IMG/VR virus record: IMGVR_UViG_3300029945_000585
Direction: 5' to 3' (one strand)
Source: a virus
DNA: 32,551 nt
Positions 8,325-9,216 of the stretch are shown one piece after another. Positions within the stretch are counted from its first letter, which is position 1; each line of letters begins with the position of its first letter. The translations under genes and the position numbers were made by a program. The notes beneath the pieces are model-generated. The model was not told the origin of the DNA. It made no database searches and saw only the letters and a list, made by a program, of their open reading frames with translations.

Positions 8325-9216
8325 GTTTTCGTAGCCACCCAACGATAGGGTGACTGCACCCAGGATGATGGTGGCGTACTGGCCAAAGGTGTTTTCGTAG
8401 CCACCCAACGACGGGGTGACTGCACCGACCTGCTCTTGGCAGGTTATCGCAATTTTTCGTAGCCACCCAACGATAGGGTGACTGCACCCGCGCTCACCCG
8501 GATCGTCGATGGCTTTTTGTTTTCCGTAGCCACTTCCTCAATCCAGTTTTCGTAGCCACCCAACGATAGGGTGACTGCACCGAGATCGAGGTGAAGTGGT
8601 TGCCTGTCTGTTTTCGTAGCCACCCAACGATAGGGTGACTGCACCCAAAACCAATGCTGAGGATAATCCGTCCCAGTTTTCGTAGCCACCCAACGATAGG
8701 GTGACTGCACCCATCCTGTCCAGCGGCGCTTGAACGCGCCAGTTTTCGTAGCCACCCAACGATAGGAATACAACGCTCAGTTCGTCAGTTTTCGTAGCCA
8801 CCCAACGATAGGGTGACTGCACCTCCGGCACTCCAGGAGAACGAACAGTTCTAGTTTTCGTAGCCACCCAACGATAGGGTGACTGCATACTCCCGCCATC
8901 TGATCTGCTGTTCCTCGTTTTCGTAGCCACCCAACGATAGGGTGACTGCACCAGACGGTCACGACTGGCTTCTCGTGCATGGGTTTTCGTAGCCACCCAA
9001 CGATAGGGTGACTGCACCACCGAAAGGTTTGTCAACAACCTATTTCCCGTTTTCGTAGCCACCCAACGATAGGGTGACTGCACCCGTTACGATCCGCCAG
9101 ACGCTCTTTCAGGTGTTTTCGTAGCCACCCAACGATAGGGTGACTGCACCCGCTAAACCTCATTCCCCCCTCCCGAATTCGTTTTCGTAGCCACCCAACG
9201 ATAGGGTGACTGCACC
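8325..9216 (-). CRISPR. CRISPR array 1 (conserved core): 36-bp repeat GTTTTCGTAGCCACCCAACGATAGGGTGACTGCACC (+ strand), ~15 units, 28-30 bp spacers; no cas genes adjacent
   Basis: Near-identical repeats at 8325, 8391, 8546, 8610, 8790, 8856, 8919, 8984, 9050, 9116 and 9181, plus intermediate units. Units at ~8517 and ~8740 are truncated. Repeat has an internal hairpin CACCC-aacgata-GGGTG. Read on the minus strand it ends ...GGCTACGAAAAC (stem-loop plus ~9-nt handle), suggesting crRNA sense on the minus strand and a leader at 9217+. Confidence 0.9.

Follow-up and report, generated by a model that had tools for sequence, protein, structure and literature searches.

A cas-less CRISPR array, typed to a type IV-A-associated repeat family, at the tip of a 5.5-kb tract of diverged repeat units

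Background

Type IV-A CRISPR systems, with their Csf1, Csf2 and Csf3 proteins, a Cas6 or Csf5 enzyme and CasDinG, are the closest described relatives of the locus discussed here. In type IV-A complexes the 5' tag of the guide, which is 8 nt long in IV-A1 and 7 nt in IV-A3, is bound by Cas5, and Cas6 caps the 3' hairpin (PMC11519345); as a rule, type IV lacks the Cas1-Cas2 adaptation module (PMC7038947). The subject of this study is a CRISPR array at positions 8325-9216 of IMG/VR virus record IMGVR_UViG_3300029945_000585, a stretch of 32,551 nt that was analysed in its entirety and is called the window below. The window also carries a type I-C system with its own array, and the array at 8325-9216, first noticed in a reading of the letters alone (the first-pass annotation), is the second of the two.

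The likeness of this second array to type IV-A systems lies in its repeat, a close relative of repeats that flank type IV-A operons elsewhere (IV-A3-like, with a Cas6e-related enzyme), in a predicted hairpin and 8-nt tag that fit the 7-8-nt Cas5-bound tag and Cas6-capped hairpin of the known complexes (PMC11519345), and in a setting like that of a mobile element and devoid of an adaptation module (PMC7038947). It differs in that no effector genes lie near the array, in the combination of 36-nt repeats and spacers of about 30 nt, and in that the related operons are ordered csf3-x-x-cas6e-csf2-dinG and include two family-specific proteins. All told, we consider it highly probable that the array is real, is not of type I-C, belongs to a type IV-A family and is an orphan in cis. 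Two observations go beyond the first-pass annotation: the repeat is typed to a type IV-A-associated family, and a tract of diverged units, 5.5 kb long, has the array at its tip. An orphan array alone would be ordinary; the interest lies in its link to a rare type IV-A-like family with a Cas6e-like enzyme, two family-specific proteins, 36-nt repeats and an ACGA[A/C]AAC tag. We know of no prior description of this small family.

Huge phages are reported to carry CRISPR loci that lack Cas1, Cas2 and Cas4, and often interference genes as well, with a median of six repeats (PMC7162821); type IV is absent from the main text of that paper (Al-Shayeb et al. 2020). The window is similar in that it holds no adaptation genes for its I-C system and no cas genes of any kind for its second array, but this array is not compact, its 15 repeats and 46 older units standing against the median of six. 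A further parallel is offered by Racrs, or solitary repeat units (Camara-Wilpert et al. 2023, PMC10651486): there, as here, repeat-derived units without cas genes are found on probable mobile elements, some of them outside arrays and near counter-defence-type genes, with hairpin and tag kept. Racrs, however, are single units behind a promoter, whereas the window holds dozens that are continuous with a normal array and its leader, and heterogeneity of the kind seen in the window also occurs in arrays that adjoin cas genes. Finally, the two arrays of the window lie on one contig, are both of class 1 and have hairpin repeats ending ...AAC; the I-C array, in contrast, adjoins cas genes, varies between samples, and has an 11-nt tail and longer spacers.

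The array and its repeat

Two features of the window are needed from the outset:

8325-9216, minus strand: homogeneous CRISPR array of 13 full repeats (35/36 nt) and 2 partial repeats, with spacers of 27-31 nt
9217-9345, minus strand: leader, with a promoter-like TTGATC (9340-9335), 17 nt, and TAAAAT (9317-9312)

The repeat, GTTTTCGTAGCCACCCAACGATAGGGTGACTGCAC(C), occurs within 8325-9216 in 13 copies at no more than 3 mismatches, and 10 of these are perfect across 35 nt. Two more copies are partial, one truncated after 25 nt (8743-8767) and the other degenerate (8521-8545). The repeats recur every 62-66 nt. Each of the 10 normal spacers is unique, without similarity to the others or to the rest of the window; they measure 27-31 nt, a slightly wider range than the 28-30 bp given at first reading. 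The array thus shows two general marks of CRISPR, namely regularly spaced direct repeats (at least three, near-identical and 23-55 nt long) and unique spacers of uniform length, and the call of a CRISPR array at this position was a sound one.

In the minus sense, taken here as the transcribed one, the repeat reads GGTGCAGTCACCCTATCGTTGGGTGGCTACGAAAAC. It had been described as unrelated to the I-C repeat, GTTTCATCCGTCCTTCGGGACGGGTGTGGATTGCAAC (32195 onward), and the two do differ, with 14 of 36 positions in common (9 of 16 at the 3' end) and a free tail of 8 rather than 11 nt. Repeats of 36 nt with 30-nt spacers and GTTTT.../...AAAAC ends have the look of type II, V-A or VI repeats. An assignment to one of those types was considered and rejected, the window having no Cas9, Cas12 or Cas13 and the relatives of the repeat adjoining type IV-A genes. 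A search of Rfam gave no match at the gathering threshold over the window and none at E <= 10 on 8300-9350, and a literature search for the 11-mer TTTTCGTAGCC, which recurs throughout the array and the tract described below, returned primers only.

A repeat family linked to type IV-A operons

Relatives of the repeat were found by scanning metagenome contigs for two copies of the 11-mer 46-76 nt apart. The scan returned mostly chance matches, plus one contig, here L035 (contigs fetched for comparison are given such handles); the same motif pair in genome contigs gave chance matches in coding tandem repeats only, the source genome being absent from the GTDB species representatives. L035 bears a regular array with the repeat GTTCAGCCATCCCCTAAAATGGGTGGCTACGAAAAC, to which the last 16 nt of the window repeat are identical, and a Cas6e-like gene (PF08798) ends 20 nt before the leader of that array. 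A homologue of the L035 protein, 53% identical, is encoded by the last gene of a csf2-dinG-csf3-x-x-cas6e operon on L101, a contig of 554,748 nt, where PADLOC models match at 1e-12 (typeIV_Cas7), 4e-48 (typeIV_DinG), 2e-15 (typeIV_Cas5) and 4e-12 (Cas6e). After this operon come 16 repeats CTCTCAGCCATTTAGAAAATAGATGGCTACGAAAAC, oriented as it is.

A profile built from the L035 and L101 Cas6e-like proteins found 45 relatives among 1.84 billion representative proteins. Seven of the 45 were looked up, none of them from a sample that holds the window, and five proved to lie in csf3-x-x-cas6e-csf2-dinG operons accompanied by arrays (L109/L110, L111, L112/L113, L114 and L116). Over these five and L101, the PADLOC matches range from 1e-12 to 7e-19 for typeIV_Cas7, from 1e-39 to 4e-48 for typeIV_DinG and from 1e-12 to 2e-15 for typeIV_Cas5, with Cas6e at about 1e-11, and the matches of hidden Markov models (HMMs) built from the family agree with this typing of the csf3/cas6e-like/csf2/dinG operons. 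The related operons also encode two family-specific proteins (the x-x genes), and no recognisable match to a Csf1 model was found in them. Family systems lie on contigs of 200-555 kb (548,795 nt for L109/L110, 206,756 nt for L114). In L114 csf2 and dinG are each split into two open reading frames (ORFs), possibly through long-read assembly errors. Another of the seven is a lone Cas6e-like gene at L115 7001-7507 (GCA_009712145.1), where no csf2, dinG or array was detected and the neighbours are PARP-like and ART-PolyVal genes.

The window repeat matches those of L112 (GGTGAGGCCACCCATCAATTGGGTGGCTACGACAAC), L116 and L114 at 27, 28 and 27 of 36 positions, respectively, and across its last 16 nt it agrees with L112, L116, L114 and L101 at 14-15. 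Arrays of the family have repeats of 35/36 nt, a period of 60-70 nt and an ACGA[A/C]AAC tail. Repeat typing, which the first-pass annotation had named as a check, places the repeat in this type IV-A-associated family rather than in I-C. We assign it there, on sequence and predicted structure, because homologous repeats flank csf/dinG/cas6e operons and because the length of its tag agrees, the predicted fold giving a hairpin and an 8-nt tail where type IV-A has one of 7-8 nt. The homology to repeats linked to csf2/csf3/dinG/cas6 operons is seen both in the sequence and in the predicted structure.

Members of the family have repeats that are far from uniform. The 19 units of L109, identical in two independent assemblies, have at least 8 different hairpin tops above an invariant GGTCCACGACAA[CT]; the 10 units of L112 show substitutions and indels in the hairpin with GGCTACGACAAC invariant; and in L114 (11046-14349) 51 units spread over 3.3 kb conserve GAAGCCACC...GTGGCTACGACAA[CT] with nearly every loop different. 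In L111 the trailer repeats have other hairpins, which are still paired. Heterogeneous hairpins with an invariant tag are normal for the family and alone are no sign of lost function, because arrays that adjoin cas genes show the same pattern. To our knowledge, and as far as our literature searches went, such heterogeneity of hairpins and loops has not been described for type IV. The arrays of the family, together with the tract in the window, in effect record, through natural mutagenesis, which parts of a repeat a Cas6/Cas5 pair requires.

Predicted fold, orientation and leader

In the minus sense the repeat is predicted to fold into an 8-bp stem, AGUCACCC/GGGUGGCU, followed by a free 8-nt tail, ACGAAAAC (-13.6 kcal/mol, z = -2.95). 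The CACCC/GGGTG hairpin of the first-pass annotation is the core of this longer stem, and the handle, put there at 9 nt, is 8 nt long. The window, L035 and L101 repeats all have a predicted stem of 8-9 bp that ends at GGCU and leaves 8 nt free. The predicted fold of the I-C repeat leaves an 11-nt free tail, UGGAUUGCAAC, as expected for Cas5c substrates.

The orientation to the minus strand that had been proposed for the array agrees with four lines of evidence: the sense of relatives that adjoin cas genes, the gradient of degeneracy, a U:G pair and a common leader block. The arrays of L101, L109, L111 and L112 read ...ACGAAAAC in the sense of their own cas genes (the L114 array is convergent to its operon). 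Perfect repeats adjoin 9217, and mismatched and then diverged units follow toward 8325 and below; in L035 and L111, as in the window, degenerate repeats lie at the end distant from an AT-rich leader. The stem of the array repeat holds a U:G pair in the minus sense and a C-A mismatch on the opposite strand. Moreover, the sense with GGCU gives the more stable fold in 35 of 46 units outside the array (Wilcoxon p = 2e-5). The plus-strand orientation was also considered, prompted by older units that end in GACTGAAAC, like the canonical Cas6 tag, and by some G:U pairs; it was ruled out by the sense of the relatives beside cas genes, by the gradient toward the leader at 9217 and beyond, and by the GGCU fold in those 35 of 46 units. 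The minus sense is adopted because the first two of these and the preference in folding point the same way.

Two blocks of the leader, TTTGATCGAC (9341-9332) and CGTTCTTTGACAA (9308-9296), are common to the leaders of related arrays: both are present in L105, and the L101 and L109 leaders contain CTCTTTGACAA and CGTTCTTTCAAA, respectively. The TTGATC-17-TAAAAT site picked out in the first-pass annotation is indeed present at 9340-9312 on the minus strand, with a 9/12 match; in a promoter scan of the region, the number of such promoter-like sites was not above chance. The layout is that expected of a CRISPR locus, with a leader and putative promoter at one end and degenerate repeats at the other.

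Cas genes of the window and its I-C system

The absence of cognate cas genes near the array, as claimed at first reading, was borne out: no match was obtained in the window or its flank with Pfam and PADLOC (run also on flanking ORFs), with tblastn using the L101 proteins, or with unfiltered HMMs built from four to 46 family members. Genes for csf1, csf2, csf3, cas6/csf5 and dinG, which in a type IV-A locus would be looked for within about 10 kb, were not found beside the array, and so it is filed as a type IV-A-family array and not as a type IV-A locus. An ORF of 150 aa (9467-9919, minus strand), which by its position could correspond to the Cas6e-like genes of L035 and L101, is unrelated to them and has no Pfam or PADLOC match. 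In a search of IMG/VR for related loci, Cas6e-like alignments were too divergent and the L112 DinG found no relative.

The cas genes that the window does contain are of type I-C: cas3 (26285-28669, minus strand), then cas5c, cas8c and cas7 to 32008, then the I-C array (32195-32551). Neither between cas7 and this array nor in the 4 kb beyond were cas1, cas2 or cas4 found. The locus is found, at no less than 99.9% identity, in many metagenomes of peat and bog. The I-C array has different first spacers in the window and L024, in L020, and in L021/L022, and a single repeat in L019. Acquisition or loss operates on the I-C array in this population; there is no trace of either in the second array. 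A shared route of adaptation is disfavoured because the one array varies and the other is static, and because their spacers differ in length (33-35 nt in the I-C array, 27-31 nt in the second).

One I-C spacer (32445-32479) has a match of 33/33 in L105 (6090-6122) and of 32/33 in L106 (3625-3657), with a 5' flank of TTTG. L105 and L106 are IMG/VR viral contigs from the site of the window, and the protospacer is within an ORF whose start closely follows a unit of the type IV-like repeat family in inverted orientation. The I-C system appears active, because its array varies between samples and one of its spacers matches a viral contig from the same site. That contig also carries type IV-like units, a hint that large mobile elements in peat use CRISPR against one another. 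A large serine recombinase is encoded by L106 as well.

With an apparently active I-C operon as the sole effector in the window, one might suppose that it serves the second array too, Cas5c processing the transcript and the I-C Cascade with Cas3 using the guides. Such service seems very improbable to us. The sequences of the two repeats have little in common, as set out above, the tails of 8 and 11 nt and the ranges of spacer length do not match, and the second repeat, lacking the relatedness to I-C and the 11-nt 3' tail cut by Cas5c that mark an I-C array, has relatives that all stand beside type IV-A genes and never beside I-C genes.

The tract of diverged units

A 5.5-kb tract (3900-9460), otherwise made of older units, has the array as its youngest end, which is still homogeneous; its other parts are as follows:

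6590-8324, minus strand: diverged continuation at the trailer end, 30 units with GGCTACGAAAA (at most 1 mismatch), most with a hairpin closed by AGYC/GGCU
4620-4905, minus strand: distal remnant, 7 units including tandem doublets of the bare 11-mer, split off by the gene cassette
3900-4372, plus strand: convergent block, 8 units (GGCTACGAAAA on the plus strand) with a period of about 60 nt
9365-9460, minus strand: degenerate units upstream of the leader, 11-mers at 9372 (2 mismatches) and 9432 (1 mismatch)
5080-6472, genes on both strands: gene cassette interrupting the tract, with an ART-PolyVal ADP-ribosyltransferase gene (5080-5838, plus) and small ORFs (5835-6218 and 6146-6472, minus)

The 11-mer, with at most 1 mismatch, occurs 61 times in the window, compared with 0.45 expected, and every copy lies between 3906 and 9442. 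Eight copies are on the minus strand (3906-4366) and 53 on the plus strand (4626 to 9442), 15 of the latter within the array. Outside the array, copies with 0, 1, 2 and 3 mismatches number 27, 19, 6 and 15 in 4.7 kb of tract, against 0, 0, 8 and 46 in the other 27 kb; by chance about 1.4 and 8 would be expected in the tract at 2 and 3 mismatches. There are accordingly 46 further units, which in their transcribed sense form two convergent blocks and in which GGCTACGAAAA is kept at about 6-8% divergence.

Units of the trailer-end continuation are spaced 10-155 nt apart, with a mode of 63-69 and, in the 6604-8236 block, numerous gaps below that and a few above it, and their hairpin sequences differ from that of the array. 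In the convergent block, which overlaps a probably spurious ORF (4045-4659), the hairpins are mostly AUCC/GGAU, not ACCC/GGGU. The stem partner G[AG]CTG is present in 27 of the 46 units versus 6.9% by chance, and hairpin variants across the tract include ACCC/GGGU, AUCC/GGAU, AUUC/GAAU and CACA/UGUG. The tract goes beyond what is seen in the arrays that adjoin cas genes: it has units that are truncated, the bare 11-mer occurs in doublets, spacing is irregular and a gene cassette has been inserted. The ART-PolyVal gene of the cassette matches PF18760 at 7e-24, and the gene calls of the cassette are the same in six other assemblies.

Tandem doublets and triplets of the bare 11-mer, without a hairpin and with a period of 11-17 nt, occur in the window at 4690/4701, 4764/4775, 6994/7005/7015 and 8127/8140, and elsewhere in L031 (2203/2217 and 2277/2290) and L105 (5579/5596/5613). 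None of the explanations that we considered accounts for them.

Such hairpin-free tandems, and the inversion of one block of the tract relative to the other, are what a DNA-level protein-binding site repeated in tandem (an iteron, a centromere-like repeat or a packaging repeat) might look like, in which case the 11-mer would have nothing to do with CRISPR. We find this scarcely credible. Six arrays in physical linkage with csf/dinG/cas6e operons have repeats that close with the same 12-16 nt, the spacers of the array are unique and uniform in length, and the strand asymmetry of folding, with its U:G pairs, points to structure in RNA.

Unit clusters elsewhere and the possibility of decoys

Clusters of 3-10 units were found at other loci of the same community. 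One, seen in L031, L050 and L071 alike, lies downstream of hsp20 on a contig from IMG/VR whose other products include IF3- and ClpX-like proteins; another, in L037/L038, adjoins a different ART-PolyVal gene on a 62-kb contig. The IMG/VR contigs L105/L106 combine a cluster with a mini-array of two repeats, the bare motif repeated in tandem every 17 nt, a unit in inverted orientation and both of the leader blocks TTTGATCGAC and CGTTCTTTGACAA. Similar clusters turned up in unrelated metagenomes (L067 and L033). These could be remnants of other arrays, or repeat mimics. ART-PolyVal genes stand beside unit clusters in the window (5080-5838) and in L038 (3165-3998); there is also one about 5 kb from the type IV-A array of L101 (16536-17024) and one near the lone Cas6e-like gene of L115 (11420-12724).

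On the second of these views, the diverged units, and perhaps the array with them, would be Racr-type RNA decoys that soak up Cas6 and Cas7/Cas5 proteins belonging to the type IV-A system of a rival element or of a host, shielding the element that carries them. Repeat mimicry is a demonstrated anti-CRISPR strategy (PMC10651486); irregular clusters recur both in this community and in other metagenomes, several of them on contigs called viral by IMG/VR; ART-PolyVal genes, typical of mobile-element counter-defence, are found at the places just listed; and tag and hairpin, the parts a decoy needs, are the parts that are kept. That said, the same heterogeneous hairpins are found in regular arrays adjoining type IV-A operons (L109, L112 and L114), and these give a simpler account of where the units come from; in its leader and its 10 normal unique spacers the window array resembles any ordinary one; many units are cut down to the bare 11-mer and would be unable to bind Cas6; and no promoter was identified for dispersed units, the count of promoter-like sites being at chance. 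Units outside arrays are always clustered, and those of the window are continuous with a normal array. We think decoys quite improbable as an account of the tract.

How the array might function

The reading that we favour is that the array is served in trans. It would be transcribed on the minus strand from the leader at 9217-9345, with the candidate promoter at 9340-9312, and, as in known type IV-A systems, a Cas6e-like endoribonuclease of the Csf5 type would cleave the precursor CRISPR RNA at the stem's 3' base, so that 8 nt of repeat precede each spacer. A finished guide would begin with ACGAAAAC as its 8-nt 5' tag, continue through roughly 30 nt of spacer and close with the hairpin of the next repeat, to which Cas6 would remain bound. 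Guides would load into a Csf2/Csf3 (Cas7/Cas5) complex, DinG helicase would be recruited, and matching DNA would be silenced without being cut. Because the window encodes none of these proteins, the array depends for any activity on an effector from elsewhere, be it encoded on the same, probably very large, mobile replicon or by a co-resident element or the host. On this reading, systems of the family lack adaptation genes and rarely turn over their spacers, and for these two reasons single repeats age in place, the tag with the base of the stem (GGCUACGAAAA) and the hairpin being kept as the sequences of loop and upper stem drift. What the data show is the array and its tract, the family it belongs to, its orientation, its constancy between samples and the lack of cas genes in cis; how guides are processed and loaded, the part played by DinG and that an effector exists in trans are points that we infer, and the reading as a whole strikes us as evenly poised between right and wrong.

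Support for a hairpin that is kept comes from an alignment of 34 distinct units, anchored at both stem bases, from the window and L031, L033, L035, L037, L101 and L105. Pairing is seen in 83.8% of stem cells and falls to 22-46% once the partner column is shifted, with the reservation that the outer four pairs served to pick the units and that of the inner four, which alone are unbiased, 62-76% of cells pair. Stem cells changed on both sides number 19, compared with 10.2 +/- 2.8 in shuffles, none of 500 shuffles reaching 19; yet units with the same variant stem may share ancestry, so that independent compensatory events are fewer than the counts of cells, and this is one of several points that weigh against the array being in use.

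The others concern its partners, its targets and its state. Genes for csf2, csf3, dinG and the Cas6e-like enzyme are absent from the window, from about 5 kb of left flank (L025 and L028), from L019, which extends the window to the right, and from the other contigs fetched from the same population, and family HMMs run at maximum sensitivity on contigs of the same community gave no match with E of 0.1 or below. Word-based searches with the L035 Cas6e-like protein, the L101 Csf2 and the L112 Cas6e-like protein, which returned 2, 1 and 1 proteins, revealed no relative from the peat samples. The spacers of the array are the same in the window, L025, L026 and L030, with one single-nucleotide polymorphism, and give no sign of current acquisition. 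No protospacers were found among 50,697 phage and 72,556 plasmid records, in IMG/VR (searched with four spacers) or in the fetched loci, and searches with spacers and pseudo-spacers gave no targets; neither turnover of spacers nor spacers matching mobile elements, a further general mark of CRISPR, was seen. The two broken repeats of the array, the cassette that splits the tract and the irregular spacing of its older part fit decay.

These same facts invite the explanation that the locus is a fossil. A type IV-A operon would have been lost, nothing would act in trans, and array and tract would be decaying neutrally; the heterogeneity of hairpins would date from the period of use, while the truncation of units, their uneven spacing and a divergence of roughly 7% in the 11-mer would have come about after the loss. 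There are no cas genes in cis and no relative of the Cas6e-like family from the same samples, the array is static across the kinds of samples between which the I-C array, 23 kb distant, varies, repeats are broken at 8521 and 8743, and 19 of the 46 older units have no stem partner. Unit spacing that ranges from 10 to 155 nt, the ART-PolyVal cassette inserted in the tract and the failure to find protospacers can be read in the same way. Nevertheless, no mismatch is found over 35 nt in 10 of the 13 full repeats, and the leader has retained blocks common to arrays that adjoin cas genes. Such arrays are themselves equally imperfect, and imperfection thus does not show lost function. Nor is the absence of an operon decisive when the view is limited to 32.5 kb of a replicon of perhaps several hundred kb. 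Diverged orthologues of the tract were sought as a measure of selection, but all copies are at least 99.9% identical, so that neither conservation nor decay can be measured. We regard the fossil as a serious possibility, though one that we lean away from.

A bolder reading would take the whole tract not as a fossil but as a working, hard-wired library of about 60 guide-like or decoy RNAs on a very large mobile element. There would be no renewal by adaptation; units would be inherited and kept one by one under selection, and each repeat would evolve alone, its 8-nt tag and its hairpin kept through compensatory changes and its loop left free. The loop-hypervariable array beside the L114 operon and the heterogeneous arrays of L109 and L112 are what such a library predicts. 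On balance we doubt it and hold it to be unlikely. The pattern in the family suggests, at any rate, arrays that persist for very long without turnover. If the units were expressed and used in trans, they would provide a tractable example of inherited, non-adaptive guide libraries; if the tract were such a library, it would be a fixed regulon of the CRISPR interference type, or an anti-type-IV shield between giant elements, and not an adaptive memory.

The replicon and other features of the window

There is some indication of the kind of replicon involved. An 840-aa protein (1320-3842) has an MVP-shoulder (major-vault-protein) domain, and its only homologues in the phage collection, full-length and 37% identical, are in huge-phage genomes of 462 kb and 735 kb (Al-Shayeb et al. 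2020, PMC7162821). In the left flank (L025/L028 1-5408) a giant ORF of at least 3,545 aa, without a Pfam match, lies just upstream of the window, and most ORFs of the window itself match neither Pfam nor PHROG families. These features, with the absence of I-C adaptation genes and the 200-555-kb contigs of the relatives, are why a huge phage or other very large mobile element fits. A phage origin is not established, because among ten window proteins compared with PHROGs the ART-PolyVal protein was the only one to match. A cyanobacterial origin, as would be signalled by HIP1, was considered and rejected, there being only 3 GCGATCGC sites, though GATC is twice as frequent as expected: it occurs 289 times in the window compared with about 127 expected, and CGATCG 47 times.

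Three other repeated stretches deserve mention. About 21 copies of an 18-nt tandem repeat, which would give a hexapeptide if translated, lie at 15791-16312 inside a 665-aa ORF (15743-17740) without a Pfam match. Beside a DUF6471 gene, in small minus-strand ORFs, the pairs 10567-10658/10972-11063 and 10695-10807/11037-11149 are 73-77% identical at distances of 342-405 nt and are probably tandem paralogues. Finally, three copies of a 39-nt tandem repeat lie at 25523-25640, between a helix-turn-helix gene and cas3.

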